Assembly (NCBI GenBank): GCA_964532425.1
Contig: CAZHIA010000001.1
Coordinates: 270,846-334,845 of the forward strand
Length of the DNA stretch: 64,000 nucleotides
Direction of reading: 5' to 3'
Source of the DNA: an uncultured Candidatus Saccharibacteria bacterium
Lineage (GTDB): Bacteria > Patescibacteriota > Doudnabacteria > UBA920
The notes beneath the pieces were generated by a model. That model ran no database searches. It was not told the DNA's origin and saw nothing but the letters and a program-made list of their open reading frames with translations. The translations under genes were made by a program, and so were the position numbers. Shown piece by piece: positions 13,148 through 57,968 of this stretch (positions are counted from its first letter, which is position 1; every line of letters starts with the position of its first letter).

Positions 13148-13186
13148 AACCGTATTGTACCATGTGTTATACTATGTGTGGAATCC

Positions 13187-13222
13187 AACGTTAATCATCC
13201 GCGGCCGCGGATGATTAACGTT
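13187..13222. repeat. 36 bp palindrome AACGTTAATCATCCGCGGCCGCGGATGATTAACGTT (P1 family, NotI core)
   Basis: Perfect palindrome immediately upstream of the wHTH-Cas2-like gene. Relatives at 13786 and 22331. Confidence 0.8.
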
Positions 13223-13249
13223 GTAGACAATTTTATTAAGCTTTTTTAT

Positions 13250-13786: not shown

Positions 13787-13821
13787 ACGTTGATCGTTCG
13801 CGGCCGCGAACGATTAACGTT
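13786..13821. repeat. 36 bp palindrome AACGTTGATCGTTCGCGGCCGCGAACGATTAACGTT (P1 family)
   Basis: Overlaps the stop codon of the wHTH-Cas2-like gene. Confidence 0.8.
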
Positions 13822-29983: not shown

Positions 29984-30037
29984 CATGCGACATATTCCAT
30001 TTTTGTCCGGTCGGACAAAAATGGAATATGTCGCATG
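29984..30037. repeat. 54 bp perfect hairpin palindrome CATGCGACATATTCCATTTTTGTCCGGTCGGACAAAAATGGAATATGTCGCATG (P2 family)
   Basis: Immediately upstream of wHTH-Cas2-like paralog 2. Confidence 0.85.
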
Positions 30038-30091
30038 GACATGGGGGTGGAAAAAGTTTGAAAATAATTCCCTTAAACTGAGGGTAATCAT

Positions 30092-30649
30092 ATGGCAAGG
30101 AAACACAAGCGGAACAGTAAGGAGGTCAAATTGACAGTCGCTGGGCATATACTAATATATTTGCTAGTAGGAATAGATTTGTTGCCCCGGCCGTTTGAAC
30201 ATAAAACCGCCTACGTCAAAAGAATTTTTAAAGGACAAGTCGCTTACTCGGCCTATTGGTCAGCCGTACAGCGCCTTGAGCGGCTTGGTTTAGTGATTGA
30301 AAAAGAAGACGATAATGGAAATATTGTATTCGCATTGACTGAGAAGGGGAGACTCGAAGCTTTATTTGAGAAAGCGAAGATTCAGAAGCAGGAACCGTGG
30401 GATGGAAAATGGAGATTGATGATCTTTGATATTCCTGAAAAGGCCCGCCATCAGCGCAGATTATTGCGCTATTTATTGAGAAAGAATCAATTTGTTAAAT
30501 TGCAAGAAAGTGTCTTTATTAGCCCTTACGCTCTGAATGTTGAAGCGATTGCGTATTTAAAAGAAACTGGCTTGAATGTATATATTCGTCTGCTTCGCGT
30601 AGACCAAATGGATGATGATAAGGACCTTTGTAAGAAGTTTGGTTTATGA
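30092..30649 (+). CDS. winged-HTH + Cas2-like (PaaX_C-type) protein, putative transcriptional regulator (paralog 2)
   Basis: About 45-50% identity to the 13250 protein across the C-terminal half (WDGKWRLMIFDIPEKARHQRRLLRYLLRKNQFVKLQESVFISPY...AIAYLKETGLNVYIRLLRVDQMDDD). Confidence 0.6.
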   Translation: MARKHKRNSKEVKLTVAGHILIYLLVGIDLLPRPFEHKTAYVKRIFKGQVAYSAYWSAVQRLERLGLVIEKEDDNGNIVFALTEKGRLEALFEKAKIQKQEPWDGKWRLMIFDIPEKARHQRRLLRYLLRKNQFVKLQESVFISPYALNVEAIAYLKETGLNVYIRLLRVDQMDDDKDLCKKFGL

Positions 30650-30684
30650 GTTTAAAAATCATATTTGCTGCCCGAACCAGGAAC

Positions 30685-30718
30685 ATTCCATTTTTGTCCG
30701 GTCGGACAAAAATGGAAT
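30685..30718. repeat. P2-family hairpin palindrome ATTCCATTTTTGTCCGGTCGGACAAAAATGGAAT
   Basis: Directly downstream of paralog 2; same core as the repeats at 11624 and 29984. Confidence 0.8.
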
Positions 30719-30979
30719 ATAACAAATAGAAGAGGATGAGTATGGTTTTGAAGGTTGGGTTTGGATTAGAAATGAATCGGAAATGAATGGAAAATGGTTC
30801 CCGGTTTGTAGGATGTGGTTATTGGGAAAAAATTTTGTGGACAAACGGGGTTTGTGGTATAATATTTGCAAGAAATGTAGAGCGAGTTTCGGAAATAAAG
30901 GTTCACTCTGTAAACAGCACGGAAGTGAACCTGTATTAGCTCCTCGGCTCGCTCGTCCGCAAGCGGCCGGCCTCTCTCT

Positions 30980-33900
30980 ATGTCGCTAATTAAAACAGAT
31001 CTGGTGAGATTTCCTCTTTCTAAAATAAAATCAGCCATTTTTATAGTTTTGGCCGTGTTTTCCGTGGCAATCGGAGTTGCTGCGGCGTATCCGCGTCCGG
31101 TTTTAGCCCAGACAACCGCTTCGTCCGGGCCGATTTCCGATTGGGAGCCTGTGAATATCCGCGGCAGCGAACCGGCTACGACGACGGCCGAATCGCTCGG
31201 ACAAGTGGCTGGGACTTCAACTTCGGCGAGTAGCGAGAATGGCGCCTCAGGAGCCATTAAAGGGATGATTACACTGGTCAACTTGGTCATTCGCGCAATT
31301 TTGACTTTGATCAACAAGGTGATATTCGTTATTTTCACCACCCTGATCGCACCTTTTTTGGAGGCAATGCTGTCCATTCATACGTATAGCGACAAGTTCG
31401 TATCGATCATCTACCCCGGCTGGCAGATTGTGCGAAACCTCTCAAACATGGTTTTTATCATAGCCTTGATAGCCATTGCCATGGGTACGCTGTTCCAAAT
31501 GAGCAATTACCAGTTCAGGCAGCTCTTGATCAAGCTTGTTATAGCTGCGCTTTTGGTGAACTTCAGCCTGGTCATTGGCCAAGCGGTACTTGGTCTGGCG
31601 GATACGATACAAAACCAATTTTTGCCGAATAATTCAGAAGCCATCAGGACGCTTGCGAGAGATTTAATGGAGCGCGGCACTGTTGAGATTTTTAACAACG
31701 TTCCGGTTACTACCGACCCGTTTAGCGTAGCTGCCAACTTATTGTTTATGGAAATGGTGACGCTAGGAACTTTTGCAGTGTTTGTGGCTATGGTAGCATT
31801 TTTGGCGATACGGGTTATTGCCTTATGGATATTGCTGATGGTGTCGCCGCTTGCGTATGTGGCAGGAGTGTTGCCAACGACAGCGGGATTGCGCGGCAAG
31901 TGGTGGAGCGAGTTTTTGAAATACGCTTTCTTCACTCCAATCATGGCTTTCTTTATTAACCTGGTTGCCATGATGAATAAGGCGTATGGGGGAGGCCAGC
32001 TGCTCGGGCAATTGATCAGCAACCCGGTGACCAACAGTGCGATTGCAAACTTTTTCTTGCAAATTTCCAGCAACATTTTACTCGTAGTATTTCTGTTTTA
32101 TTCGCTCAAGTGGGCTGAAGGGGCTGGTGTATTCGGTTCGGCTGCCATTAGTAAAGTTGCACAAAAAGGATTCTGGGCGCCGATGAATGTATCCAGAGCC
32201 GGGTTGAATGCCGGGTATAACAAGACCAAAGAAGGTCTGAATACGGCTCGCATGAAGGCGGCAACGGCTTTGGGTAGTCCGGGTGCCGGCGGTAAAAAGC
32301 CGAACATGTTTGCCCGTGCCGCATCGTACACGCTCGGGTATCCGGAAAGCGCCAAGGCCAAGAAGGAAGCCAAGGAGAAAAAGCTGCACGATTTGCAGCA
32401 TGACTTACAGGCGGTGCGTTCTGATGCTTTAGTGGCTTCCCAGGGCGGACATCCGCACGAGCGCCTTCATAACATTGACCACCGCAAGGACGACAAAGTT
32501 AAGGCATCGCCATTCTTCAATGGTGCAACTTCAGCGCATGGGTTTGATGCCGCGCAAGACGATCCGAAGCTTTCTAAGGTGGACCGCATGGCTGCCCAGG
32601 CTGCGGAATTTGAGAAGACCGTGGACGGGGACGATGTGGAAGGCTTCTTGAAGAGCAAGGGCTACGCGCCAACCCGCGAAGGGTATGTGCAGTTTGCCAA
32701 TGACCTAACGACCAAATATGGCTGGGACCAGGATTATGCCAAGCATTATTTGGCTAAAATGGATTCCAAGTTCAAGAAGAATAACCAGTTGAATTACGTG
32801 GGCGTGGTGGATACGGAAAGTCATAATATGGATATGGTTAGTATGACGAACATTCCGGCTCAGATTGAGGGCACTAATATGCTGGAAGGCCAGGAAGAGT
32901 TCGAGCGCATCCAAAAATTACCATTTGACCAACGGAAGGGGGCAGCAGATGCCCTCTCCGGTGATGAGCAGCAGCGCTATGCCAAGTACAAGAACTTCTT
33001 TGATGCCCAACGCAATTATGACCGCATCGACAAAGGACAAATTCAGGAGAAAGATTTGTCAGATGCGGAGCGGGCGAATATGGCAGCGTACAAGCCATAT
33101 CTCAAGATGGTCAACGGCCAGTATAAGGCCCGGGCTAAAAAAGGCACGCGTGCGCTGGTGGCCGATGTTCCGGCTAATGTGTACTATGCCAAGGATAAGT
33201 CCGGTAAGCTCATAGTGACCGATCAGGCTGCCGAGTTGTTGACGACCGGCGGCGAAGACCTCTACCGCCAGTCTGGCGCTGTCAGCGAAGCCCATAAGCT
33301 GGCGTATGACAAGATCATCCATGAAAAGGGTGGCGCTAAAAAGATGGAAGATGCCTTTACGACAGCCATCTATCGCCAGCAGCAGATGGAGGGCAAGGAT
33401 GATATTAAGTTAGCCCGCACACAGGCTCGCCAGAAAGTTACCGAGGTTTCCAAGAATTTGTATAATACTGCGATCAGTTATAGCGAAGATACGGGGACTT
33501 GGTCAGAGCCGGTTAAACTGGTTTCCCAGACCAAATCTTTGCAGGATGTGGTCAAGGAAGATACCAATTTGAACCGCCATTTTTCAGGACTGGAGCAGAA
33601 GGATGCCAATCGTGTGGTCCAGTATTACTCTTCCGGCTGGAACGAACCGGAACGGTTTAAGAGCGGTTTATCTGAGAGTATGGTAAAGATGCGTGAGGGA
33701 CTTAAAACCGATGAGGAGCGTGCTTCATTCGATAATTTGGTAGATGGAATAAAAGACCAGCAAGCACAGGCTTTTGCTGGCCGGTTCCAACCCCAGCAAC
33801 TTTCCCAGCCTGGCCGCGAAGTGGTTATGGATGGAGGACAGCTACAGGAAACGTCCCAAGCCATCCAAACTTCATTCCGCACGGTTATGGATGCTAATCC

Positions 33901-34642
33901 AAATCTGGAAATGCGCGATTATCGGGATCAAGTGGCTGACCAGTTGCGATCCAATTTAACAAATGTATCATATACGGTCAAAGAGACTGGTGAGGTGAAG
34001 ACTCTGGGAGAAGACCCTGCAGAAATGGAAAAAGTCGTCAACGTTGTCATGGCCGGAGTGGAACAGCGCGAGCCGGTAGCGGGTGCGACGGCCGCTGCCA
34101 CAACGCGTACTCAGACCACGACGCAGACTACCGCTACTCAAACTCGGGAATCAACTATTACTACTCCGCCAGGAACATTTACGAATGCGGCCCGGGATAC
34201 GGAATTGCGCCAGGAAGCTTTGCGTACTGCCAATGCATCATTTGATTCGGTTAGCCGACCCGCACCTGCCACACCTTCAACTACCACCACTACGACGACC
34301 CGTGTTGTACAAGAACCCGCAGGTGCTCCGCCTGTAACCAGGGTGGAAGTTAATACGGCCGCGACGCCTTCAGCTTCAAATCCTGTTGAGGTGAATGTTT
34401 CCGCACCTCAAACCACGACCCGGACCGCGTCCGCGCCCAGCACACCCGCAACACCTTCCCAGCCGGGCCCGTCACCCATTGTGGCACCCCCTGGTACGTT
34501 TGGCAGGCAGCGCGATGAGACGCTTCGGCAGGATGCCATGAATGCTGCGAGGCGCGGATCTGGACCGCGTTCCAACAGACCGTCTCCCGGCATGCCTGGC
34601 CAGCCTCCTGCTCCGCCAGCCGGAGGGGGAGTATCGGCTTAG
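30980..34642 (+). CDS. VirB6/TrbL-like polytopic membrane protein of a type IV secretion-like system, with a roughly 800 aa hydrophilic C-terminal extension
   Basis: N-terminal signal peptide (cleavage about VLAQTTA), then at least 6 TM helices over the first roughly 400 aa, as in TrbL/VirB6. The long C-terminus ends in a Thr/Pro-rich low-complexity tail. Genomic context is VirB4 and a VirB1-like gene. Confidence 0.5.
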   Translation: MSLIKTDLVRFPLSKIKSAIFIVLAVFSVAIGVAAAYPRPVLAQTTASSGPISDWEPVNIRGSEPATTTAESLGQVAGTSTSASSENGASGAIKGMITLVNLVIRAILTLINKVIFVIFTTLIAPFLEAMLSIHTYSDKFVSIIYPGWQIVRNLSNMVFIIALIAIAMGTLFQMSNYQFRQLLIKLVIAALLVNFSLVIGQAVLGLADTIQNQFLPNNSEAIRTLARDLMERGTVEIFNNVPVTTDPFSVAANLLFMEMVTLGTFAVFVAMVAFLAIRVIALWILLMVSPLAYVAGVLPTTAGLRGKWWSEFLKYAFFTPIMAFFINLVAMMNKAYGGGQLLGQLISNPVTNSAIANFFLQISSNILLVVFLFYSLKWAEGAGVFGSAAISKVAQKGFWAPMNVSRAGLNAGYNKTKEGLNTARMKAATALGSPGAGGKKPNMFARAASYTLGYPESAKAKKEAKEKKLHDLQHDLQAVRSDALVASQGGHPHERLHNIDHRKDDKVKASPFFNGATSAHGFDAAQDDPKLSKVDRMAAQAAEFEKTVDGDDVEGFLKSKGYAPTREGYVQFANDLTTKYGWDQDYAKHYLAKMDSKFKKNNQLNYVGVVDTESHNMDMVSMTNIPAQIEGTNMLEGQEEFERIQKLPFDQRKGAADALSGDEQQRYAKYKNFFDAQRNYDRIDKGQIQEKDLSDAERANMAAYKPYLKMVNGQYKARAKKGTRALVADVPANVYYAKDKSGKLIVTDQAAELLTTGGEDLYRQSGAVSEAHKLAYDKIIHEKGGAKKMEDAFTTAIYRQQQMEGKDDIKLARTQARQKVTEVSKNLYNTAISYSEDTGTWSEPVKLVSQTKSLQDVVKEDTNLNRHFSGLEQKDANRVVQYYSSGWNEPERFKSGLSESMVKMREGLKTDEERASFDNLVDGIKDQQAQAFAGRFQPQQLSQPGREVVMDGGQLQETSQAIQTSFRTVMDANPNLEMRDYRDQVADQLRSNLTNVSYTVKETGEVKTLGEDPAEMEKVVNVVMAGVEQREPVAGATAAATTRTQTTTQTTATQTRESTITTPPGTFTNAARDTELRQEALRTANASFDSVSRPAPATPSTTTTTTTRVVQEPAGAPPVTRVEVNTAATPSASNPVEVNVSAPQTTTRTASAPSTPATPSQPGPSPIVAPPGTFGRQRDETLRQDAMNAARRGSGPRSNRPSPGMPGQPPAPPAGGGVSA

Positions 34643-34663
34643 TACTATAATTTTTAGGTCCAT

Positions 34664-35731
34664 ATGATCAGCATCCCCTTAGACCAACTGCAAAAGTCCA
34701 TTCAAAATCCGGCTCTCGACCCCGAGGAGCAGCGGTTATTGCTCAAGGCGGCTCCCGAGCTCGGTCCGAATGTCGGACTGTACCTGTTCCGCAAGGCAAC
34801 GGCGTACGATTTTGATATTTATGCCCACTCGGTCTTTCGTGCGGTGTTTGATAGTTTTATTGCCCTGCGGGCGCTGAAAGACGGGGATTTGGAATTTGTG
34901 GCCGGCTTCCTGCAGACTTCCCGAAAAAAAACCTACTATGAAAACGGCAAGCAGATCCTGCCGCTCGCACTCGACCTTTCCTACCTCATTTTTACGCGTA
35001 AGTTTTCGCCGAGCCATGAGTTTCTGGAGGTCCTCTATGATTTTGAATCCGCATTTTTCCAATTCCTCCCTTCGGAAGAAATAGAACGCATCGTACAATA
35101 CAATCTTCTCGCGTATGCCAGGCGGCTGGATTTGCTTTATGAATTCAAGAAGCTGGCCCTGGTCTCGAGCGGTGATCCGGAGTGGGGAGCCGCATATAAC
35201 ACCCACTTGCAGAATAACAGCGAAGTCCTTGGGCAAAAAGAGATCACCGTAAGCGGCAAGCGCGTTTCTCCGACCATAAAGAATTGGCTGCTGGATTATG
35301 TAGCAGAGGTCCCAAAAGCCCTGGACCAGCGCGGGGCATATGACCAGGTTCAGTATATGCGGGTTTCCCAAAATGTCGTCCTGCTGACTATTAATGAGCG
35401 GGCGATCTTACTCGAGATTCTGAAATTGTACCAATGGTTTATGCAACCGGTTGTGACTGAGCATGAAATCGAGACGTACGAAGAGGAGCGGGCGAAGCAA
35501 TTGCGGGCTGCAGCGGAGGTTGCAGCAACCGCGCCACCGCCCATCGTGCCCACGGTTAATAATCTCGAAGTTTTGGCGACCGGCAATCGGGGCCAGAATG
35601 TGGCAGCCGGGCTTGATCTTGGAGGATTGCGGAATGTAAACATTCCGCCAACCCGCCAAGTGGCCAGAGCGGAAGCGCCTCAAAGCGCTATCGATAGAAA
35701 ACTTGAGGAATTAAGAAAGAAGGTGCAATAA
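34664..35731 (+). CDS. hypothetical protein (355 aa), T4SS-locus associated
   Basis: Tightly linked (21 nt gap) downstream of the VirB6-like gene. No domain recognised. Confidence 0.5.
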   Translation: MISIPLDQLQKSIQNPALDPEEQRLLLKAAPELGPNVGLYLFRKATAYDFDIYAHSVFRAVFDSFIALRALKDGDLEFVAGFLQTSRKKTYYENGKQILPLALDLSYLIFTRKFSPSHEFLEVLYDFESAFFQFLPSEEIERIVQYNLLAYARRLDLLYEFKKLALVSSGDPEWGAAYNTHLQNNSEVLGQKEITVSGKRVSPTIKNWLLDYVAEVPKALDQRGAYDQVQYMRVSQNVVLLTINERAILLEILKLYQWFMQPVVTEHEIETYEEERAKQLRAAAEVAATAPPPIVPTVNNLEVLATGNRGQNVAAGLDLGGLRNVNIPPTRQVARAEAPQSAIDRKLEELRKKVQ

Positions 35732-35734
35732 CCC

Positions 35735-36940
35735 ATGCAACCGCAGATTGTAGATAAAATCAAAGCAATGGTCAGATCTTCCGCGCTGCTGGATGCAGCC
35801 GAGCGGACCGAGTGGCTGCAGCTTGTCGACTTAATGAACGACAAGCAGCTGCTTGAATTGCAGCGCATTCTGCAGGCGGCGGAAGACAGGCAGAAAGCCA
35901 TAGATATTCGTCCGACCACAGTTCAGCCGGCTGCCGCCAAGCCGACCCCGTCTGCCCAAGCCATGCATTTGTCGCACATTTTGAATTTGCCGAAGGATGT
36001 GAGAGGAATGCAAGGAAAGCCTGCAGGGGCCGCCCCGGCTCGCCCAACAGAAACTGCATCGGCTGCCCAGCCACAGCGACCGCCGATTGCAGCCGACAAG
36101 CCTGGCAAGTCGTTGTCGCTGAAAGATTTCTTGAATGAGAAAGAACTGCCCCCCGGCCATCCGGAAAACGAGCTCGAGATTCCGGCGCATTTTGACGGGC
36201 AAAATTCTTCCGGAACAGTCAAGCCGGGTCCGGCTGCGATGCCGGTGAAACCGACGCTTCCTTCATCAGTTACGCGCCAGCCGGGTATGTCGCTTTCGGA
36301 TAAGCCCGCTCCGGCTAAAACAGAGCAGACAGGCAAGCTAGCCGTTGCTCCGCTCATACCAGCTCCTCCCACACCGAAGCAGCCGGTAACCAAACCAGAG
36401 GTTGCTGATCATCCGATGGTAATAAAATCAGTGGAAGAGATTAATGCCTTAAAGAGTCCTGCGGCAAAAGCTGCGAGCCAGGAGCAGGCAGCTGTCCGGC
36501 CGGGTATTAAGGACACGAAAATTTATTTGGACGCAAAACTCAGCGCGCCCAAGCCGGTACACGTGGATCTGGCAGCCGATGTCGGGCTTCCGGCAGATCA
36601 GTCAGCAGCAGCGAGGGCTGCCCAAGCGGCCGCAACCGGCAACCAGTTAAAGACTTTGGATGACATTCAAAAGTTGACGCCGCCGGTCTGGCGCGCGTAT
36701 CCTCCTGGTGAATTTTTAGACAGGATCAAGGGGCTGGTTATCCGATACGGGTACCATGACGTGATCTTCAATTTCGAAAGAAGTCCGCTCCACCAGTCTT
36801 ACATTGACACCGGTTTGAAAATACTTCATGGACGCGTCAGCTTTGAAGCGCTGGGAGAAGAGGTTCCTGGTGCACAATATCTCTCCCGCCAGGAGTTCGA
36901 AAAACTGGTGGATGTGTTAAGACAGATACAGGCTGCATAA
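35735..36940 (+). CDS. hypothetical Pro/Ala-rich protein (401 aa), T4SS-locus associated
   Basis: 4 nt gap to the upstream gene. Extended P/A/K-rich middle region and a folded C-terminal roughly 100 aa. Confidence 0.5.
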   Translation: MQPQIVDKIKAMVRSSALLDAAERTEWLQLVDLMNDKQLLELQRILQAAEDRQKAIDIRPTTVQPAAAKPTPSAQAMHLSHILNLPKDVRGMQGKPAGAAPARPTETASAAQPQRPPIAADKPGKSLSLKDFLNEKELPPGHPENELEIPAHFDGQNSSGTVKPGPAAMPVKPTLPSSVTRQPGMSLSDKPAPAKTEQTGKLAVAPLIPAPPTPKQPVTKPEVADHPMVIKSVEEINALKSPAAKAASQEQAAVRPGIKDTKIYLDAKLSAPKPVHVDLAADVGLPADQSAAARAAQAAATGNQLKTLDDIQKLTPPVWRAYPPGEFLDRIKGLVIRYGYHDVIFNFERSPLHQSYIDTGLKILHGRVSFEALGEEVPGAQYLSRQEFEKLVDVLRQIQAA

Positions 36941-37085
36941 CGCATGGTATAATGACTTAGTGGACGTATCATGCAAAAACTGCAAAATGTTTGTGTAAAA
37001 CCTTTTTACTCGCCTGGTCAACATTTGACCGCAGACGTCCCATGTCAATTGTCAAAGGTTAATTGTCAAATGTAGCTCAACTCCT

Positions 37086-37535
37086 ATGCAATACCCAGTC
37101 CCACAATTCACTGATGTGGAAGACAAGTTGATCGGCTCCCTGACCGTTAAGCAGTTCGGGATTATTTTCGGCGCGGGCGTGGTGGTATTTTTAGGGTACT
37201 CGGCGACCAAAAGCATTCCTGTACTAGTAGTGATGATCCTGCTTGTAGGCCTGCCGGCTATTGGGCTTGCTTTTGCCCCGTTTAATGGCCGTCCGATGTA
37301 CCGAATGTTGCCGTATATTTTCAGGTTTATGACCTCTCCGAAAATGCTTATTTTTCATAAGGAAGCCAACGATTTAGGTGCAGCCACGACCGTCAGAGAT
37401 GCCGAGTTAAAGAGCGGAGAAGGGCAAGCAGCTCCAAAGCTGTCGAGCAGTGAATCCAAGAACCGCCTGATGGAAATAAATCGGACGTTGGAAGAACAAG
37501 CCGCGGAGGAAGAACAACTGCTCAAGAGATTGTAG
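37086..37535 (+). CDS. PrgI/VirB3-like small two-TM membrane protein
   Basis: 149 aa with two adjacent TM helices (FGIIFGAGVVVFLGY and PVLVVMILLVGLPAIGLAFAPF), positioned just upstream of the VirB4 gene as in Gram-positive-type T4SS. Confidence 0.4.
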   Translation: MQYPVPQFTDVEDKLIGSLTVKQFGIIFGAGVVVFLGYSATKSIPVLVVMILLVGLPAIGLAFAPFNGRPMYRMLPYIFRFMTSPKMLIFHKEANDLGAATTVRDAELKSGEGQAAPKLSSSESKNRLMEINRTLEEQAAEEEQLLKRL

Positions 37536-37547
37536 AATATATAATAT

Positions 37548-38243
37548 TTGAACGTTATGGCATTCGACATGGAGAAAAAAGATAAGATCTCGGGCAGCAC
37601 TAAGACGACGCAGAGCTTTTTGCGGCTGAGTGAGATTAAAAATGACTCGGTTGTCATGGATGACGGCACACTCAGGGCTGTGATTGCCGTTTCCAGTACG
37701 AATTTCGATCTTAAAAGCCAAGACGAACAGAATGCCATTATTTTCAACTTCCAGCGCTTTCTGAATTCTTTAGAATTCCCGGTCCAGATCCTGATGCAGA
37801 GCCGAAAGGTTGAGGTGGGGAGCTATATTGAAAAGCTTAAGCGCATTGCCGAGCGCCAGTCCAATGAACTTCTTCGCGTTCAGACTAATGAATATATAGA
37901 GTTCATCAACCGGCTTATAGAAAATGCCAGCATTATGAACAAGAATTTTTATATTATTGTCCCGCTTGGTCAAAGTATTTTTCCGCCGGCATCAGGTTTC
38001 TTTGGCAGGCTATTCGGCGGTGCACACAAAGAAGCGGCTGCCCGCATCGAAAACTTTGAGCGTGAAAAGATAGAATTGGATACGCGGATCAACCAGGTGG
38101 TTTCAAGCTTAGGAGGAATCGGCATCCGCGGCGTACGCCTGAAGACCGAAGAGATTATCCAGCTGTACTACAATTCATATAATTTTGAAGCCGGTCCGGT
38201 TATTGACCCCAGTCAATTGAAAGACGTAAAAATAGTCGAGTAA
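37548..38243 (+). CDS. T4SS-associated protein resembling the non-ATPase N-terminal domain of VirB4/TraC-family proteins
   Basis: Pattern ...VVMDDGTLRAVIAVSSTNFDLKSQDEQNAIIFNFQRFLNSLEFPVQILMQSRKVEV... resembles the VirB4 N-domain. 8 nt upstream of virB4. Confidence 0.35.
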   Translation: MNVMAFDMEKKDKISGSTKTTQSFLRLSEIKNDSVVMDDGTLRAVIAVSSTNFDLKSQDEQNAIIFNFQRFLNSLEFPVQILMQSRKVEVGSYIEKLKRIAERQSNELLRVQTNEYIEFINRLIENASIMNKNFYIIVPLGQSIFPPASGFFGRLFGGAHKEAAARIENFEREKIELDTRINQVVSSLGGIGIRGVRLKTEEIIQLYYNSYNFEAGPVIDPSQLKDVKIVE

Positions 38244-38250
38244 CCTCACT

Positions 38251-41200
38251 ATGTCCCTTTTTAAACCAAAATCACAAAATGACAGTGTCACCTCTTCCGA
38301 CTCGTTAACAGGGTCAAATTTCACAGTGCCCCAAGAACCGCCAATGCAGGCGGCGTCTCCGCGCACCTTTACCGGAAACGGAGGAGTACCGGTCCGCAAA
38401 CGCAAACTTATGGCACCTCAGGAGCCGCAGCCGGTAGAGCCGGAGTCATTCACACCCGCAGCGCGGCCTGCTGCCGTGACGCAACCAGAGCAGGCTCCGG
38501 CACAGCCGGAAGTTGCCTCAGTTCCAACACCTGTTCCTGCCACCTCGCCGTCAAAGTTTGAAGCGGCCGTTCCTGCGCCGGTTATAGAGCCGCCTGCGCC
38601 GATTATTGAGCCCGTGCCGGCAGCAAAGCCAGAGCCAGTAACCGCGTCTTTTGAACCGTCAGAAATACTCGAAGTTCCGGCGGCAATCCCCGAAAATGTT
38701 CCCGTGAATATACAAAGCGATGTGCGAGAGTCAGATGATTCACAGGCTGTCGTTCCGCAGCTTGAGCCGATTATTCCCGCCTATGCCGAATCGGTGCCTG
38801 CCCTGGAGCCCGAGGTATCAAAAGCCCAGCCTGCAGTAATACAACCCCAGCCCGCATTTGAGCGCTCGGTTTCGGCGCCTGAAGAACGTGGGGATTTCGC
38901 AGCGGCTAGTCAAGCCGTTGAGCCGCAAGACCTGCAGGAGCCAGAACCACAAGCCGATGTACAGCCGCAGACAAGAGAGGTTCGCATACAACCAGGGAAG
39001 CCGGGACTGGCCGGTTCGCTCCGCAATATATTGAAGAAAGCCAAGCCGATGCCAGCCCCCGTCATTGAGGAGCGTGTGGCTCAGCCCTCGGCTTTGAGGC
39101 CTATGAGCAAGCGAAAACCGGCTATACGGGAACCGGAACAGGTGGCAGATGCCGATATGAGCCAAGACTACCAGCCGGTTATTCAACAACCGGTGCGCAG
39201 GCAGCCTGCTCCGGCCAGAAATATGCCAATTCGTCCCCAACAGAACCGTACCATTCGCAGGCCGCAGGTTGCCGTGGAAAATTTTGATAATGGCGGGGAG
39301 CCTGCAGTTGATGCAGATGGACAGCTTTTCGAACAGCCGCAAGAGGTGCAGCCGGAATATCGGCCCGCGCGGCCAATGAAGCCCCAGCGTCCGGTTATGC
39401 GTCCGCATATTTCCATACCACAAGACATCGAAACCCAGGAGGAAGTTGCTCCTGAAGAATTCGTGCCGGCTGGAAGAACGAGAAGCAGGTACCCGGAAGC
39501 GGACATGGAAACTGACCAGGGGGACGCTGCTTCCGATGAAATGGAAACGCAGGAGACCGATTCAGGCTATGCGGAAGAGGAAGTAACCGAACGGCGCATG
39601 CCGCCGGCCCGTATGCGGCGCCCGGTGGAATCGTATCGCCAGCAGCGTCGACCTACCACCGCGGGTATGTCCCGGCGCCAGGCTGCCCCCAAGAGTTTTG
39701 GGGTCAAGGAAAAAGCCAGTGCGCCGGATGGTATTTTTGGCACGTTCTTCAAGCAAAAATCGCGGGAAGAAATTGAGGCCCAAAAACGAAAGCTGGAAAA
39801 ACTTGAAGAAGAAAAGAACGCTTCCAAGCGGCTCGGCGATATTGAGAAGACATATAAGGAAGGCCTGACTACATTGAAGGATCTTCTGGCGCCGGCCTCG
39901 CTCAAATTCGAGAGTTCATATTTCGAATTGAACGGAAGGTTCGGTAGAAGCTTTTTCGTGCTGACTTATCCGCGCTTTTTATCATCCAATTGGCTGTCAT
40001 TTATCATCCAGTCAGAAGGCGCTCTCGATGTTTCGATGTTCATATATCCGATCGATTCAGAAACGATCCTTAAGAAGCTTAAGTCAAAAGTCGGTGAGAT
40101 CGGTTCGCAAATAGCCATTAACCAGGAAAAAGGCATGGTCCGCGATCCGATGCTCGAGACGGCGTATAATGACGTAGAGAGTCTGCGCGACGACCTCATG
40201 CAGGGAACGGAAAAATATTTCCGTTTCGCCCTCTATTTTACCCTGTACGCCAGCGACCTGCAGGAACTGGATAAGAATTCGGCTACTTTGGAAAGCGCTC
40301 TGGGAGCCAAACTGATCGTGACCAAGCGGGCGCTGATGCAGACCCAGGACGGGTTCAATTCTACGCTGCCGCTGGGACTCGATGACTTGGATGTTGCCAA
40401 TAACATGAATACGAGCCCGCTCTCTACCGTTTTTCCGTTCGTGTCTTCCGACCTGACCGGCAATGACGGTATCTTGTACGGCATTAATCGTCATAACAAC
40501 AGCCTTATTTTGTTCGACCGGTTCGCCATGGAAAACGCGAATTCGGTTGTGTTCGCCAAGTCCGGTGCGGGGAAATCTTACGCGGTCAAACTCGAAGTGC
40601 TGCGTAGTCTCATGGTTGGTACGGATGTCATTATTATCGACCCGGAAAATGAATACAAGCATCTGGCCGATGCGGTCGGTGGCACGTATTTGAGTGTGTC
40701 CTTAAACGCCCAATCGCGCATTAATCCGTTCGATCTGCCCATAGGCCTTGAAGGGGAAGATGGTGCCGATATTTTGCGGTCAGCCGTGGTCAACTTACTC
40801 GGTCTGTTTAACTTGATGCTCGGCAAGCTCAATCCTACGGAAGAAGCCTTGATGGATAAGGCTATTTGGCAGACATACGCTAAAAAGGATATTACCGAAA
40901 ATTCGGATTTCCGCATGGTCGAGTACCCGACCATGAACGATCTGGTAGAGATTCTGGAGGGTATGGTCGGGGCAGAAAGCCTGGCTCAGCGCTTGTCCAA
41001 ATATACCGAAGGCACGTTTGCCGGGTTGTTCAACCAGCCGACGAACGTGGTACTCAACAACCAATTGGTGGTATTTTCCATTCGCGATCTTGAAGACGAG
41101 CTGCGCCCCATTGCCATGTATATCGTACTCAACTATATTTGGAACGCCATCCGTTCGGAGCTGAAGAAGCGCATCTTGGCGGTGGATGAAGCCTGGATCC

Positions 41201-41577
41201 TTATGCAGCATGAGGACAGCGCGCGTTTTCTATTTTCCATTGCCAAGCGCGGCCGCAAATACTACATGGGTCTGACGACCATTACCCAGGACGTGGCGGA
41301 CTTTATGGCAAGCCCGTATGGCAAGCCGATTGTGACCAACTCTTCCATTCAGTTGCTGTTAAAGCAGAGCCCAGCCGCCATTAATGTGATTGCGGAAACG
41401 TTCTTCTTGACTGAAGGGGAAAAGTACCTGCTGCTGGAAAGCGAAGTGGGGGAGGGGATCTTCTTTGCGGGTCTCAAACACGCGGCAATCAAGATATATG
41501 CTTCATATGTTGAGGACCAGATTATTACGACCGACCCCAAGCAGTTGCTGGAACAGGAACAACAGCAGGAACAGTGA
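38251..41577 (+). CDS. virB4: type IV secretion system ATPase VirB4/TrbE/CagE family, fused to a roughly 530 aa Pro/Ala/Glu/Gln-rich disordered N-terminal region
   Basis: Walker A VVFAKSGAGKSYAVK and Walker B ILAVDEAWILM. VirB4 N-domain features (FFVLTYPRFLSSNWLSFI...DVSMFIYP) begin at about residue 540. Confidence 0.85.
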   Translation: MSLFKPKSQNDSVTSSDSLTGSNFTVPQEPPMQAASPRTFTGNGGVPVRKRKLMAPQEPQPVEPESFTPAARPAAVTQPEQAPAQPEVASVPTPVPATSPSKFEAAVPAPVIEPPAPIIEPVPAAKPEPVTASFEPSEILEVPAAIPENVPVNIQSDVRESDDSQAVVPQLEPIIPAYAESVPALEPEVSKAQPAVIQPQPAFERSVSAPEERGDFAAASQAVEPQDLQEPEPQADVQPQTREVRIQPGKPGLAGSLRNILKKAKPMPAPVIEERVAQPSALRPMSKRKPAIREPEQVADADMSQDYQPVIQQPVRRQPAPARNMPIRPQQNRTIRRPQVAVENFDNGGEPAVDADGQLFEQPQEVQPEYRPARPMKPQRPVMRPHISIPQDIETQEEVAPEEFVPAGRTRSRYPEADMETDQGDAASDEMETQETDSGYAEEEVTERRMPPARMRRPVESYRQQRRPTTAGMSRRQAAPKSFGVKEKASAPDGIFGTFFKQKSREEIEAQKRKLEKLEEEKNASKRLGDIEKTYKEGLTTLKDLLAPASLKFESSYFELNGRFGRSFFVLTYPRFLSSNWLSFIIQSEGALDVSMFIYPIDSETILKKLKSKVGEIGSQIAINQEKGMVRDPMLETAYNDVESLRDDLMQGTEKYFRFALYFTLYASDLQELDKNSATLESALGAKLIVTKRALMQTQDGFNSTLPLGLDDLDVANNMNTSPLSTVFPFVSSDLTGNDGILYGINRHNNSLILFDRFAMENANSVVFAKSGAGKSYAVKLEVLRSLMVGTDVIIIDPENEYKHLADAVGGTYLSVSLNAQSRINPFDLPIGLEGEDGADILRSAVVNLLGLFNLMLGKLNPTEEALMDKAIWQTYAKKDITENSDFRMVEYPTMNDLVEILEGMVGAESLAQRLSKYTEGTFAGLFNQPTNVVLNNQLVVFSIRDLEDELRPIAMYIVLNYIWNAIRSELKKRILAVDEAWILMQHEDSARFLFSIAKRGRKYYMGLTTITQDVADFMASPYGKPIVTNSSIQLLLKQSPAAINVIAETFFLTEGEKYLLLESEVGEGIFFAGLKHAAIKIYASYVEDQIITTDPKQLLEQEQQQEQ

Positions 41578-41591
41578 AGCGAGAGATGTCG

Positions 41592-41665
41592 AAGATAACG
41601 ATAACAATAACTATAAGTATACAATTGTGAAGAGTTATGGTTATACTTATCGTTATTGTTATTTT
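41592..41665. repeat. AT-rich inverted repeat/hairpin between virB4 and the transglycosylase gene
   Basis: GATAACGATAACAATAACTATAAGTATAC ... TATACTTATCGTTATTGTTATT. Confidence 0.4.
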
Positions 41666-41678
41666 AATTGGGTAGCGC

Positions 41679-43589
41679 ATGCCGAACGACGATCAGACTA
41701 GTACTGTAATGGATCAAGATACCGACTCTGATGCCGGCGATTTTGGCAATGGAACACCAGGTAGTCAAACGGTATTTCAGCAAGACAATATCCGCACTTC
41801 CCACGCATATGTTAGAAGCGGTGAGAACGAAGAAGAAAAACGGGACAAAGAAAAAGACGAGCGGCCGATCGATAAGGCTCTGCGCCGAGAGGATAACCTG
41901 AATAAGCTTTTTGGAAAAAATCGGAAATCCGAACCGGTAAGGGGAAACGCTTTGCCGGTTTCTAAACCTGGGCAAACAGGTGGTTTGACTCCAAGCGGGG
42001 GGAAAGTTTCCGGTCCTGTGGCTAAGGGAGGGAGTGGTCAGGGATCAGGGGCGGCAACTGCAATAGCTATGGCGCCTTATGCCGCAGGGGTGGCAAAGGA
42101 ACTGGCTAAACATCCTGTAAATTCGACTAAAATTTTGTCCCCAAAGAGTCCTGGAAACCAGCCGGGTATTACTGACCCAAAGAAAGCGGATCCTCTACTT
42201 GAATTACAGGAAGGAAACCGGCAGTTGGAGGCTGAAAAGGAAAGAAGGGACCAGCAGCCGGCAGGTCTACAGCCGGATACTGGCAATGTAAATCGACAAA
42301 CTCCACCCCAAGAAGGTCAAATTGGATTGCCTAAATCTTTGAGAACGGGGCAAATGGATGGCTTGAATTCCTTAAAACGGAATGACCAGGCGCTTTCGGC
42401 GCGTCTTGGCAGTTTGCAGGCCGGGCGCGAACCGAAGGCTGGACAACAAGAGCAAGACAATATGAGACAGTATGCGCCTCCTCCGATTCCAGGCGAGCCG
42501 CGTCCGGCAACCCAGGTGACCGGAAAAGACGGACAACCGGCCCAACCGATTTCTAAAACTGCTCAGAGTGGTGCTTTGGCTGACAGGCAGGTCCCGGAAG
42601 ACGGGGCGGCCACGGCAGCAGAGAAAAAACAAGAGGAAGGGAAGGGTGCGAGCGGTCTTGTGGAGGACCCTGCATTTCAGGCGGCTCAGAATAAAGCACT
42701 CAGCGCAATGGGACCGGAAGGCGCCCTGGCGGCGAAAGTGCTCCAGACCAAAGCCGGGCAGGAATTGGAAGAAAAAGTAGTGGGACAAGCCGTCAAAAGA
42801 GGTTGGTGGTACGGTTTTGGCATTGCATCCGGTGTATTTTTTTCCGGGTTCGATTTCATGGTTGGTGCAATCATCATGGATGCGTACTGGTTTGCTCATC
42901 GCAAGGACAAACAACTCTTTCCGATGAAAGGCTGGCAAAAAGCTGTGACGCTGTTCGCCAATATTGCTCCGCTTTTATACGCGTTGGCGTTGCTGTTTAT
43001 TATTATGTTTACGCTTTGTAATACCTGGTCAACGAAATATGCGATAAAGGGTATTTCTTATTTTAGCGGCAGTACGGACTATTGCCAGTATTTTGATATT
43101 GATACATCGGCTGTTGGTAATTCCGGCGATGCATTGACCTCATTGCCGAATAACGGCGGCACAGGCTTGTGTAAATCCCAGGCATTCGGACCGGCAAGCG
43201 AGAGTACACTGTCGACTTCTTGTTTTGGCGCGAACGCATCCGCGGCTTCTGCCATTGCTGGCGCCGAGAGCGGTGGTGATCCTACTGCCAAGAGTTCAAC
43301 GGATAAGTGTGCGGACGGTAATTCAGTTTCCATCGGCTTGTTCCAGATTAATTTGACCAATCATCAGATTGGCGGTTTGAATTGCCCGGCCGCTTTTACC
43401 AGGCAGTATACGGCTGCTGATCATAGCTGCATCGTGAAAACCGATGCAGTCTCCCAAGCGTTGTATAATAACTGTGTGGCCGCGGCGCAGGATCCTGCCA
43501 ATAACATCCAGGCAGCATGTACCATCTCTTCAAATGGTGCCCATTGGGGGCAGTGGGGAGCAAACAATAAATGCGGTTTTACTCCGTGA
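41679..43589 (+). CDS. VirB1-like lytic transglycosylase (SLT/lysozyme-like domain) with a long disordered N-terminus and an internal TM
   Basis: C-terminal SLT signature AIAGAESGGDPTAKS...SIGLFQIN (ES...GLxQI). Hydrophobic segment WWYGFGIASGVFFSGFDFMVGAIIM. Confidence 0.65.
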   Translation: MPNDDQTSTVMDQDTDSDAGDFGNGTPGSQTVFQQDNIRTSHAYVRSGENEEEKRDKEKDERPIDKALRREDNLNKLFGKNRKSEPVRGNALPVSKPGQTGGLTPSGGKVSGPVAKGGSGQGSGAATAIAMAPYAAGVAKELAKHPVNSTKILSPKSPGNQPGITDPKKADPLLELQEGNRQLEAEKERRDQQPAGLQPDTGNVNRQTPPQEGQIGLPKSLRTGQMDGLNSLKRNDQALSARLGSLQAGREPKAGQQEQDNMRQYAPPPIPGEPRPATQVTGKDGQPAQPISKTAQSGALADRQVPEDGAATAAEKKQEEGKGASGLVEDPAFQAAQNKALSAMGPEGALAAKVLQTKAGQELEEKVVGQAVKRGWWYGFGIASGVFFSGFDFMVGAIIMDAYWFAHRKDKQLFPMKGWQKAVTLFANIAPLLYALALLFIIMFTLCNTWSTKYAIKGISYFSGSTDYCQYFDIDTSAVGNSGDALTSLPNNGGTGLCKSQAFGPASESTLSTSCFGANASAASAIAGAESGGDPTAKSSTDKCADGNSVSIGLFQINLTNHQIGGLNCPAAFTRQYTAADHSCIVKTDAVSQALYNNCVAAAQDPANNIQAACTISSNGAHWGQWGANNKCGFTP

Positions 43590-43598
43590 ACGTACGGT

Positions 43599-44039
43599 AT
43601 GAAGCATAAAGCGCTTAAAATTTTTGGAGGCGTGGTTGTAGCCGGTATATTCCTGTACTGCGTGTTCTTGGCAATGCAGCAGAGTCTGGACACAGTTTCG
43701 TCCCGTCTGGGGATTCCGACCGGGTCCGGTATGGTGCGCGTTAAGGATTTTACCGCGCATCCGGTGCAGCAAGTGCAGGATACCCAACTCATCGAACGTA
43801 CAGACCAGTTCAGCATCATGTACTATCCGAAAGAGCAAGCATTCAATATTACCGTAACCGGAAGCCAGATTCGGCAGGCGCGTGCTGCGGCAGAGTCTGA
43901 ATTTCTCCGAATGCTTGACATTGACAAAAACCAGGCCTGCCAGCTGCGCGTGTCGCTTATGGTCCCATATGCGGTAGCGCCAGACCTGGCTGGGCGCAAT
44001 TATGCCTTAAGTTTCTGCAAATCAGGCGTGTTGTTCTAG
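43599..44039 (+). CDS. membrane-anchored hypothetical protein (146 aa)
   Basis: 10 nt after the upstream stop. N-terminal TM. Confidence 0.45.
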   Translation: MKHKALKIFGGVVVAGIFLYCVFLAMQQSLDTVSSRLGIPTGSGMVRVKDFTAHPVQQVQDTQLIERTDQFSIMYYPKEQAFNITVTGSQIRQARAAAESEFLRMLDIDKNQACQLRVSLMVPYAVAPDLAGRNYALSFCKSGVLF

Positions 44040-44151
44040 ACTGGCGGGCTATGCCTTGAGTATGGTATAATACAATAAAGCGAAACTACATCCCCAACAT
44101 TTGATTATGTCAGAAGGCGGGGCAAACTTAAGCTAAGGATACAAAAATCAT

Positions 44152-45354
44152 ATGAATAAAAAGGCAATAGCGATTTTGGGGGCGATTTTTCTTTTGATTG
44201 TGGGAACGCTTGGTTTTTTGATTTTTTCCAAGTCATCCTCCAAAAACAATACTGGCAATAACCAGTTAGAGCCGCCCCAAACGCAGGCGAACAACCAGAA
44301 CCAGAATCCGATTCCGAACCCGCCGCCCTCCCAGGTGAATACCTCAACACCTCCGGTTGCAACGAGTACACCCCCCATCACGAATCCTAATCCGCAGACT
44401 CAGCGTACTCCGGTCAAGTTGACCGAGGAAACCGTAGTCTCTCCAGCTTTGTTCTATGATGGGAGTGCCGTAGCTTATTTCGGCACGCAAGGGAGTTTGT
44501 ACCAGGCCGTGTTGGACCAAACAGGAGACACTATTACGCTGAGCCGCAAACATACCATTGATATTCCGGCGAAGTCTAATATTTCGCGCATTCTATGGCC
44601 GAAGAAAGGCAGTGACCTGATTGCAGAGTTCGTCAATAGTGGCAAGAAAACTTGGAGTTATTTCAACAGCAAGACCGGGTCTTATACCGATCTGCCTTCA
44701 CAGATCTTTTCTTTGGACTGGATGCCGAGCGGGGATAAAATTCTGTACACATGGCTGGAAAATGGCAAGACTACTTTGAATATATCCGATCCCGATAGTA
44801 CTCATTGGCAGGGGGTCGCCGACATGTGGGAAAATGATGATGCCTTGAGCGTATCTCCCGACGGTTTGAACGTCTTATACTACCGTACGGCAAATCCGGC
44901 AGCTGACAATCCAATTTATATGGTATCCATAGACGGAAAGGTCTGGCGGACACTGGTGAAGACCGGATATAACTTTGGCGTCTCGTGGAGTCCTGATGGG
45001 CAAAAATTTATTTATTCCAAACGCGACCCATCCAACCAGAAGCCCGGGCTTTGGTACTATAATCTCGCTACGGGCGAAACCAAGAGCCTGAATGTGCCCG
45101 GCACGGCCGACAAGCTGGTTTGGGACAGCGCAAGCAAGTACGTCTATGCCGCTTCGCCAACCAGTGGGGACGTGCAAAACGGGCTCACTGTTGATACATT
45201 CAGCCGTATTGATACCGATACTTTGGAACAAAAGAATTATGACCTCGGCGGGGTGAACGTCGACTTCCGCGATATGTTCCTGAATCTTGCCGGCTCGGTC
45301 CTTTATTTCCGCAACGCACAGGATGGAGCGTTGTATTACCTCAATCTGAATTGA
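44152..45354 (+). CDS. secreted TolB-like beta-propeller (PD40 repeat) protein with an N/Q/P-rich linker
   Basis: Signal/TM anchor, then repeated motifs SPDG(x)K(x)Y... (VSPDGLNVLYYRT, WSPDGQKFIYSKRD). Confidence 0.45.
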   Translation: MNKKAIAILGAIFLLIVGTLGFLIFSKSSSKNNTGNNQLEPPQTQANNQNQNPIPNPPPSQVNTSTPPVATSTPPITNPNPQTQRTPVKLTEETVVSPALFYDGSAVAYFGTQGSLYQAVLDQTGDTITLSRKHTIDIPAKSNISRILWPKKGSDLIAEFVNSGKKTWSYFNSKTGSYTDLPSQIFSLDWMPSGDKILYTWLENGKTTLNISDPDSTHWQGVADMWENDDALSVSPDGLNVLYYRTANPAADNPIYMVSIDGKVWRTLVKTGYNFGVSWSPDGQKFIYSKRDPSNQKPGLWYYNLATGETKSLNVPGTADKLVWDSASKYVYAASPTSGDVQNGLTVDTFSRIDTDTLEQKNYDLGGVNVDFRDMFLNLAGSVLYFRNAQDGALYYLNLN

Positions 45355-50969: not shown

Positions 50970-52196
50970 TTAAGGAGCGTATTGCGGAGCGGGATCTTCA
51001 ATAATATAACCTCCCATAGTCTGTTTGCCGTCCGCTGGTTGTATGTCCGTGTCTTGTGTATTTGTTGCGGTATTCTTTGCTGGCTGTTTTAAATTCAGGG
51101 GGATCGTGCTTGTCGAAGCTGAAGGGGAAGCGGGGTTGGCGGGGGTAGTAGTCGGCAAGTTGCTGTCCGAAGTGGAGGTTCCCTTAACCGTGCCTGCCGG
51201 TTGGTTGGCGGGGTCGAGTACGGTGATCTCCCGAGCAACGATGGTGTTATTGGTCTTCTTACCCACAATATGGATTAGGGTACCGGAAGTAAGTGAGGTT
51301 GTGGCATTCCCTTCTTCATCCTGGGTGGTGGTTTCGGCGGAAAGGTAGAAAATGGTTTTTTCGATAGTTACAGAGCCTTTATCCGCCCTGGTAACAGTAC
51401 CGGACATAGTAACAATGTTCGGATCATTATTGAGTTTGGTCAGACTTTCGTCTTGGGCAACGGTTGCAATTTGGATGAGCTTGTTTACTTCCGTAACTGT
51501 CTGCGCATTCGCTTGTTGGGCTGCGGTGGCTGCATCTTGAGCTTGTACATCGGGTTTAATGGTATTCAAGAGGTTCTGTTGCTCTTTGGTAATATTCTGG
51601 AGCGAGGCAACGATCGGGTGGTCCTTAGCGGTATTCAAGTTGCTGAGCGCGGCGGTTTTAACCTCTGCGGTGGTTTGTTGGGTCTGGTTCGAGAGTTCTG
51701 CCAAGGCCGCAATCTCCAAGGCAGGGTTTTCATTGTGATTTTCAAATACCTGCCGGGCTTCGTTCATACGCCGCTGGGTAAGAGCTAATTGCAAATTTGC
51801 GCGCTCAACGGGATCATTCGTCATTTTCAATTCCAGCTGTTCAGCTGTGCGTTTGACCGCAAACAGCCGTTGTCCTGGCAGGCTGTTTATTGCGCCGTAC
51901 GCAGTGGCTCCAAAAGCCGCAAGAAGCAGCAGCATACTGGTGCTAACCGCTGCAAAACGTGAGAAGTGCATCCAGGTTGTCCAGATGCTAGCTTTGGCTG
52001 GGGCGGTCAGGTATAGTCGGCGCATGGCAGGTTCGGGGGCAGGGATGGTTGGTATCCGCATAAACGGCTCCGCGGTTTGCAACAAGCCGAGTAGGAGCTC
52101 TTTATGTTCCGGGTACTTTGAAACTATCTGGTCAGCCGGCATGCCGGACTTCAGATCTTTCAAAGCCTTATCCAAAATGTAGTCAATCTCTGCCAT
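50970..52196 (-). CDS. putative anti-sigma factor / sigma-associated single-pass membrane protein (408 aa)
   Basis: Overlaps the upstream ECF sigma gene by 14 nt. Cytoplasmic N-domain, TM (FAAVSTSMLLLLAAFGATAYGAI), long extracytoplasmic region with a T/N/Q-rich tail. Confidence 0.5.
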   Translation of the reverse strand: MAEIDYILDKALKDLKSGMPADQIVSKYPEHKELLLGLLQTAEPFMRIPTIPAPEPAMRRLYLTAPAKASIWTTWMHFSRFAAVSTSMLLLLAAFGATAYGAINSLPGQRLFAVKRTAEQLELKMTNDPVERANLQLALTQRRMNEARQVFENHNENPALEIAALAELSNQTQQTTAEVKTAALSNLNTAKDHPIVASLQNITKEQQNLLNTIKPDVQAQDAATAAQQANAQTVTEVNKLIQIATVAQDESLTKLNNDPNIVTMSGTVTRADKGSVTIEKTIFYLSAETTTQDEEGNATTSLTSGTLIHIVGKKTNNTIVAREITVLDPANQPAGTVKGTSTSDSNLPTTTPANPASPSASTSTIPLNLKQPAKNTATNTQDTDIQPADGKQTMGGYIIEDPAPQYAP

Positions 52197-57849: not shown

Positions 57850-57900
57850 ACCGCTCCTTTCGTGATTAATTACTCATTGTTTTATGGGTGTTCCCGTTAG

Positions 57901-57929
57901 GTAGGGGCGGGTTTGAAACCCGTCCCTAC
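57901..57929. repeat. REP-like hairpin GTAGGGGCGGGTTTGAAACCCGTCCCTAC
   Basis: Same family as 9219 and the RAYT-associated REPs. Confidence 0.6.
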
Positions 57930-57968
57930 GGATATGTTTATTCTGTGGTGCATGGTTATGGTTGATTG

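Follow-up and report, generated by a model that had tools for sequence, protein, structure and literature searches.

A probable vertically inherited, chromosomal type IV secretion operon of the Patescibacteria lineage in a Candidatus Doudnabacteria genome

Introduction

Does a type IV secretion system (T4SS) without visible conjugation partners serve something other than DNA transfer, or is it what remains of a mobile element? The question is raised by nine genes (g1-g9) within positions 30980-45354 of a 64-kb stretch of contig CAZHIA010000001.1 (assembly GCA_964532425.1), the whole of which is called here the window. An initial annotation, made from the letters of the DNA, had seen in these genes a T4SS-like locus with unusual fusions and had proposed a non-conjugative use in a small-genome, possibly episymbiotic bacterium. 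We conclude, with a probability of roughly 0.8, that the locus is a chromosomal T4SS operon which a Doudnabacteria genome has inherited vertically, and that it belongs to the Patescibacteria T4SS lineage, itself related to the MPF-FATA class of conjugation machinery found in single-membrane bacteria. Its function would be host interaction and not conjugation, as we infer from Saccharibacteria genetics, the homologous cluster of Southlakia epibionticum ML1 being essential for epibiotic growth.

Systems of this kind have already been described in Patescibacteria, so that the reading first proposed coincides with the literature. Wang 2023 reported in S. epibionticum ML1 a T4SS cluster (SEML1_0006-0019) closest to Gram-positive conjugative systems, with no recognisable coupling or relaxase proteins, and found it essential for epibiotic growth by transposon sequencing (Tn-seq); its genes follow the order VirB6-like (SEML1_0013, 1088 aa), NTF2-like, 998-aa, PrgI, 293-aa, VirB4, 1113-aa, lysozyme and pilin array (PMC10633639). 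Quinonero-Coronel 2025 detected VirB4 in 2,417 of 3,035 Patescibacteria genomes, mostly as one clade nested in MPF-FATA, with TrsD, PrgI and VirB6 near virB4 and relaxases almost absent; VirD4-type homologues occur in most of these genomes, nearly always far from virB4; among the neighbours of the latter ksgA is common, and so are radA and recG within the ABY1 class (PMC12102498). Both the extended VirB6 proteins and the T4SS of Patescibacteria count as established in a 2025 review. Our literature search brought up no paper on type IV secretion in Doudnabacteria.

Results

An intact operon with a split VirB4

The nine open reading frames (ORFs) are all present and co-directional, as initially annotated (Table 1), and all are intact, the 500-codon open insertion in virB4 included. 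The intergenic gaps, from g1 to g9, measure 21, 3, 145, 12, 7, 101, 9 and 112 nt; the g3-g4 gap of 145 nt lies outside the range of 3-110 nt that had initially been given.

Table 1. Positions in the window of the nine operon genes, the PaaX-like gene and the palindrome copies.
Feature	Position	Strand	Length (aa)	Remarks
Palindrome copy 3 (solo)	11624-11667 (copy at 11629)			between two convergent genes
Palindrome copy 1, core ATTCCATTTTTGTCCG-GT-CGGACAAAAATGGAAT	29984-30037			just upstream of PaaX-like gene; candidate operator
PaaX-like regulator	30092-30649	+		winged helix + PaaX_M/Cas2-like domain; Pfam PaaX_M E 2.5e-20
Palindrome copy 2	30683-30720			between PaaX-like gene and VirB6-like gene
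g1, extended VirB6/TrbL-like polytopic membrane protein	30980-34642	+	1220	
g2, conserved syntenic protein	34664-35731	+	355	syntenic homologues in 36-37 loci
g3, conserved syntenic protein	35735-36940	+	401	synteny in 40-50 loci, threshold-dependent
g4, PrgI/VirB3-like	37086-37535	+	149	Pfam PrgI
g5, TrsD-like	37548-38243	+	231 (from TTG start)	NCBIfam VirB4_plasma, TrsD, CD1110
g6, VirB4 ATPase	38251-41577	+	1108	CD1110 family; PDB 4AG5
g7, VirB1-like hydrolase	41679-43589	+	636	Pfam SLT_3
g8, small membrane-anchored exported protein	43599-44039	+	146	two invariant Cys
g9, membrane-anchored PD40/TolB-like beta-propeller	44152-45354	+	400	PD40; partial TolB

The protein g6 proved to be the bona fide VirB4 ATPase that it had been taken for: it scores 362.8 bits against the NCBIfam model conju_CD1110 (cutoff 325, E 3.5e-108; model positions 176-728, residues 530-1074), matches the VirB4 C-domain of PDB 4AG5 (E 8e-47), and its translation shows a Walker A (AKSGAGKS) and a Walker B (DEAW) motif. 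A search of a species-level genome collection with the VirB4 core returned 362 relatives, and the comparisons reported here use the best 80 of the 362, to which the core is 62-89% identical; by the CD1110 score and this identity, g6 is a VirB4 ATPase of the MPF-FATA/Patescibacteria lineage. The labels of the 80 genomes are mostly Candidatus Doudnabacteria, Patescibacteria or the generic "uncultured Saccharibacteria", and the source genome is that of a Candidatus Doudnabacteria (Patescibacteria, or Candidate Phyla Radiation, CPR); its sequence is also carried by the run SRR11567520.

The preceding gene, g5, ends 7 nt upstream of virB4 and matches the NCBIfam models VirB4_plasma (positions 88-233, E 4.9e-10), TrsD/TraD (E 2.6e-6) and CD1110 (positions 9-135, E 1.2e-3), in every case below the family cutoff. 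Within that limit a TrsD-like gene stands beside virB4, and the small protein had been rightly compared to the N-domain of VirB4 only. Since g5 and g6 jointly tile the CD1110 model, over positions 9-135 and 176-728 respectively, g5 is a detached VirB4 N-domain. The true start of g5 is uncertain, and the exact TTG-start product is absent from the protein collection.

Related VirB4 proteins are mostly 603-630 aa long and start with MSLFGPK, the conserved core following immediately. In g6 the start is MSLFKPKS (conserved MSLFxPKS), and after residue 8 the ATPase core (nt 39736-41577) is held off by an insertion of ~490 residues (residues 9 to ~495, nt 38275-39735) in which Pro, Ala, Glu and Gln are abundant. 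Because its frame is free of stops over 495 codons, against 13 and 18 stops in the other + frames, the insertion is most probably coding. Shorter insertions were found at the same point in L007, L008, L075 and L078, which brings the number of genomes with such in-frame, disordered insertions to five, the window included. Moreover, the trsD-virB4 junction, equivalent to 38243-38251 in the window, is an insertion hotspot; in ~14 other loci the gap is occupied by a small gene of the PDDEXK_3 (GxxExxY) or the 23S_rRNA_IVP four-helix-bundle type. The hotspot loci are L004, L005, L010, L013, L014, L015, L018, L019, L021, L022, L025, L028, L046, L047, L063 and L075. The window itself also has a 23S_rRNA_IVP gene, at 12313-12663 (-).

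Membrane components and two conserved companions

The hidden Markov model (HMM) check that had been suggested for the PrgI assignment was run, and g4 exceeds the cutoff of Pfam PF12666 (PrgI; 41.9 bits against 27, E 1.5e-10). With its two transmembrane segments, at residues 16-34 and 46-64, it is the two-segment PrgI/VirB3 homologue that was expected, and it lies near virB4.

The first gene, g1, encodes a protein with a signal or anchor at residues 13-35, a helical membrane domain at ~90-431 (nt 31247-32272) and a hydrophilic tail at ~432-1220, Pro/Thr-rich at its end. Neither Pfam nor NCBIfam, in their current versions, gave a match for g1, and when the VirB6 alignment was searched against PDB profiles, it returned coiled-coil noise only. 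On the other hand, a weak precomputed TrbL_3 match is recorded for the exact g1 protein, its homologues are annotated as TrbL_3, and 8 of 20 of them match Pfam TrbL (best E 2.7e-5); these records support the VirB6 assignment, which places a VirB6-like polytopic protein near virB4. The initial annotation was right on this assignment and on the extension of roughly 800 aa, but not in calling the fusion unusual, such a tail being normal in the clade, where full-length homologues measure ~740-1430 aa. The presence of the tail is constant but its sequence is variable, being unconserved even among close relatives; conservation is confined to residues ~80-420, in 54 loci. The positive-inside pattern of the g1 loops suggests that the tail is probably cytoplasmic, with some uncertainty. 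Extended VirB6 proteins have been reviewed (PMC12857230); compared with these and with TrwI/VirB6 of R388 (PDB 7o3v), g1 is set apart by a tail of ~800 residues that is unconserved.

Neither g2 nor g3 has a transmembrane segment. In g3, conserved N- and C-terminal domains are joined by an Ala/Pro-rich linker, and at a limit of E<=1e-3 its family comprises 469 clusters of 50% identity. For both proteins, Pfam on 30 + 29 family members, PDB profiles, a word-index search for homologues and a full HMMER run against 1.84 billion representatives returned unannotated relatives only.

Hydrolase, partner genes and propeller

The layout of g7 comprises a disordered N-terminal region of ~370 residues, a membrane module at ~380-447 and a Cys-rich C-terminal SLT_3 lysozyme-like domain (residues 517-627, nt 43227-43559; 33.9 bits, cutoff 27); the protein carries AESGG and GLFQI motifs and 10 Cys, in agreement with its initial description as an SLT-domain VirB1-like hydrolase. 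A CHAP domain, present in Gram-positive VirB1-like proteins, is absent from it. The membrane module was found in 46 loci and the SLT_3-type C-terminal domain in only 9, all of which fall among the 10 loci carrying g8; this small protein, which co-occurs with the SLT_3-type g7, is not VirB8-like. As an unusual feature of these loci, hydrolase and partner genes look like interchangeable cassettes. At a distance of 6-10 kb upstream, the window also encodes a LysM-LysM-CHAP peptidoglycan hydrolase (23763-24926, -) and a DUF11-repeat surface protein (20329-22215, +), with no evidence linking them to the operon.

The TolB-like beta-propeller was confirmed in g9, which exceeds the PD40 cutoff (32.5 bits against 20.9) and has a partial TolB match (E 1.2e-10); it has an N-terminal transmembrane segment (6-24) and a Pro/Asn/Thr/Gln-rich linker, and is syntenic in 69 loci.

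No VirB8/PrgL/TcpC-like component (NTF2 fold) was found in the window. A VirB2-like pilin, frequent but not universal near virB4, was likewise not found by a hydrophobicity screen of the small ORFs or by inspecting all intergenic gaps, with pilin HMMs run on part of the small ORFs, and outside the known genes no small ORF has a pilin-like pair of hydrophobic segments. In 14 other loci the hydrolase gene is followed by one for a membrane-anchored protein of 180 aa that weakly matches TcpC (Pfam TpcC E 9.5e-5) and NTF2, for example at L013:15065-15610, L022:8910-9455 and L004:14897-15448, plus 11 further loci; it is a candidate for the VirB8 equivalent of the Doudnabacteria T4SS.

Genomic context and conservation

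The operon is embedded in housekeeping genes, with ArgRS, IleRS, RecO, UvrD and KsgA upstream, and RadA, RecG and two tRNAs downstream. The radA gene starts 131 nt past g9 on the same strand, with a promoter-like site directly upstream of it; recG comes next, on the opposite strand, and the tRNA genes lie ~4 kb downstream of the operon. A non-coding RNA search of the window gave nothing beyond the two tRNAs, and a terminator scan gave counts equal to the shuffled expectation. The G+C content of the locus (0.45-0.55) equals that of its flanks, with no compositional break. When all window proteins were compared with the 80 loci by tblastn, the order g1-g2-g3-g4-g5-g6-(g7-g8)-g9-radA-recG(-) recurred wherever the contigs were long enough; radA has gone from its position next to the T4SS only in more distant Doudnabacteria relatives, in which the T4SS is kept. 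Because gene order and housekeeping flanks (ksgA upstream, radA and recG downstream) recur in the majority of the 80 genomes, the operon appears to be chromosomal and vertically inherited, and to be no integrative element.

Domain scans of the ORFs of the 64 kb, all large ORFs included, found no VirD4-type, relaxase or integrase domain, and neither comEC nor comF among the scanned ORFs. This agrees with the initial observation that no VirD4 or relaxase gene was visible; the complete conjugative module that, if nearby, would have turned the locus into an ordinary integrated element was not seen either, neither a VirD4-type protein nor a relaxase being found within 64 kb, and no relaxase, VirD4-type coupling protein or integrase/replication module is linked to the operon in the window. 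That the window lacks a coupling protein carries little weight, since the VirD4-type homologues of Patescibacteria are nearly always far from virB4.

Comparison with known systems

A comparison with T4SS loci of CPR bacteria and Saccharibacteria, also suggested at the outset, revealed the same core order as in the Southlakia cluster, where it runs from SEML1_0013 to SEML1_0006 with one further gene between VirB4 and the lysozyme. The locus shares with that cluster and with the Patescibacteria clade an extended VirB6-like protein (~1100-1200 aa), two genes, PrgI, a TrsD-like gene, VirB4 and a lysozyme-like hydrolase, and, within the 64 kb, a chromosomal position among housekeeping neighbours and a cluster devoid of relaxase and coupling protein. 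By contrast with Southlakia, the window has neither a VirB2-like pilin array nor an NTF2/VirB8-like gene, carries a PD40 propeller in place of the exported PEGA-domain protein of Southlakia, has a VirB4 with the ~490-residue disordered insertion, and encodes a hydrolase with one SLT_3 domain behind a membrane module instead of three lysozyme-like domains.

With the Gram-positive MPF-FATA systems (PrgH-PrgI-PrgJ-PrgK-PrgL of pCF10; Trs of pGO1/pSK41; CD1110 of Clostridioides difficile CTn2) the locus has in common the gene order VirB6-like, VirB3-like, VirB4 and wall hydrolase, as well as the lack of outer-membrane core genes, a VirB4 above the CD1110 cutoff and a TrsD-like gene, TrsD being present in pGO1/pSK41. 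It differs from them in that the window contains no relaxase, coupling protein or PrgB-type adhesin, the locus is not on a mobile element, its hydrolase has no CHAP domain, and a VirB8-like PrgL/TcpC homologue is missing (a candidate occurs in the 14 related loci mentioned above).

A PaaX-like gene between palindromes

A gene for a PaaX-like protein directly precedes g1, and the same arrangement, with the PaaX-like gene directly upstream of the VirB6-like gene, was observed in L002, L013, L018 and L039. In the window this gene is flanked by copies of a 34-nt palindrome that occurs in three exact copies, with 0 expected by chance, and a promoter-like element (TGGACA-18-GAAAAT, 30036-30065) abuts copy 1. 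A second PaaX-like gene of the window has its own, different palindrome pair (13184-13225 and 13786-13821), and pairs also surround the PaaX-like gene in L002 (1557-1594 and 2154-2177), L018 (1133-1170 and 1878-1919) and L039 (477-498 and 1076-1097). The palindromes are long and near-identical within a pair, while their sequence varies between genomes and, in the window, from one PaaX-like gene to the other.

The PaaX-like protein is thus a candidate regulator of the T4SS operon and the palindrome its candidate operator; the match within pairs and the difference between genomes fit a co-variation of regulator and operator. The palindromes could also be markers of a repeat-bounded module, or hairpin terminators, and a hairpin role is favoured by the solo copy at 11629, which sits between convergent genes. 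A 173-aa ORF at 23095-23616 (+) has a partial match to an IS200-like Y1 transposase (E 1.2e-6), to the C-terminal part of the model only; its product may be a REP-associated-type or decayed transposase, perhaps relevant to the repeated palindromes.

Other genes of the window

Further from the operon, polysaccharide genes at 53237-55159 (+), 59595-61244 (-), 61416-62645 (-) and 57094-59528 (-) include GH6 (E 9.5e-65), cellulose-synthase-like GT2, GH8 endoglucanase-like, a further GT2 and a PMT_2-type glycosyltransferase, a content that suggests beta-glucan synthesis and/or cleavage at the cell surface. Two genes for ECF-type (extracytoplasmic function) sigma factors each overlap a downstream DUF5667 (and DUF5666) gene, at 5335-6727 (-) and 50970-52776 (-), in a layout that resembles sigma/anti-sigma pairs.

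Discussion

If the locus is the chromosomal Patescibacteria-type T4SS that we propose, VirB4 and its detached N-domain would dock on a VirB3/VirB6 membrane complex and energise assembly and transport, and the g7 hydrolase would open the cell wall locally through its SLT_3 domain, placed probably outside the cell on account of the membrane module and the cysteine-rich domain. The anchored propeller g9 and g8 would be extracytoplasmic accessories, and the whole machine would serve a contact-dependent exchange with a host cell, by protein export or in another non-conjugative role, and not the transfer of a plasmid or of an integrative conjugative element (ICE). The non-conjugative role in a small-genome episymbiont, as first suggested, is supported to this extent, and matches the published view (PMC10633639, PMC12102498).

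Several points weigh against this reading. The membership of VirB4 in the clade is based on similarity and not on a phylogeny, and the VirB6-like protein of the window itself stays below every current Pfam threshold. The contig is at least 335 kb long, of which the window covers 64 kb, and coupling protein, relaxase and pilin genes may lie elsewhere. Moreover, the VirB2-like pilin and the VirB8-like gene, both in the Southlakia cluster, were not found in the window, so that the architecture of the machine may differ from that of Southlakia.

That the same T4SS handles DNA, either by import, as do Helicobacter ComB and archaeal Ced, or by export of chromosomal DNA, coupled to radA/recG and maybe to a distant coupling protein, seems to us unlikely. 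The closeness of radA and recG to g9 does invite the idea; most of the related loci share the arrangement, which is also on record for the ABY1 class (PMC12102498); however, distant Doudnabacteria relatives keep the T4SS without an adjacent radA, and in the window radA has its own promoter-like site. Likewise comFC (K02242, SEML1_0021) adjoins the Southlakia cluster, but deletion of comEC in Southlakia abolishes transformation and leaves the cells viable, whereas the T4SS is essential there. Most Patescibacteria genomes have VirD4-type homologues that might act at a distance (PMC12102498), yet the distant coupling-protein homologue of Southlakia is non-essential, and the weak match of VirB4 to CedB (E 1.3e-10) reflects the shared ATPase fold only. 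Far less probable still is a decayed or incomplete ICE that has lost relaxase and coupling protein. It would account for the best matches of VirB4 to families of conjugative elements (CD1110, Mycoplasma ICE), for the tRNA genes downstream and for the IS200-like fragment; against it stand an order and housekeeping flanks conserved across many species of the lineage, window scans in which no integrase was found, a composition without a break, and nine intact genes, open insertion included. On synteny, composition and the lack of a detected integrase, the integrative element was rejected, being largely refuted.

Returning to the chromosomal T4SS operon, a more speculative and rather doubtful extension is that the operon is switched by the PaaX-like regulator at palindromic operators on both sides of its own gene and ahead of the VirB6-like one, while the machine diversifies by modules, namely the hypervariable 800-residue VirB6 tail, expandable disordered stretches inserted into VirB4 at codon 8 and interchangeable hydrolase-plus-partner cassettes, as a host-range or arms-race interface. 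If this were true, modular variation would be the pattern expected for such an interface in an episymbiont. We regard both the candidate regulator and the peculiarities of the locus as leads and not as findings.

Before that of Patescibacteria, no T4SS had been reported as essential for the growth of its carrier; the locus adds to this system a well-resolved Doudnabacteria example, leaving the current picture of these systems unchanged. In VirB6 the membrane domain is constant and the tail variable, in VirB4 the core is constant and the insertion variable, and in the hydrolase the membrane module is constant and the hydrolase domain, with its partner, variable. PrgI, TrsD and the propeller are further constant parts, the pilins and the VirB8-like gene further variable ones; this division helps to choose structural targets, and points to a candidate regulator.

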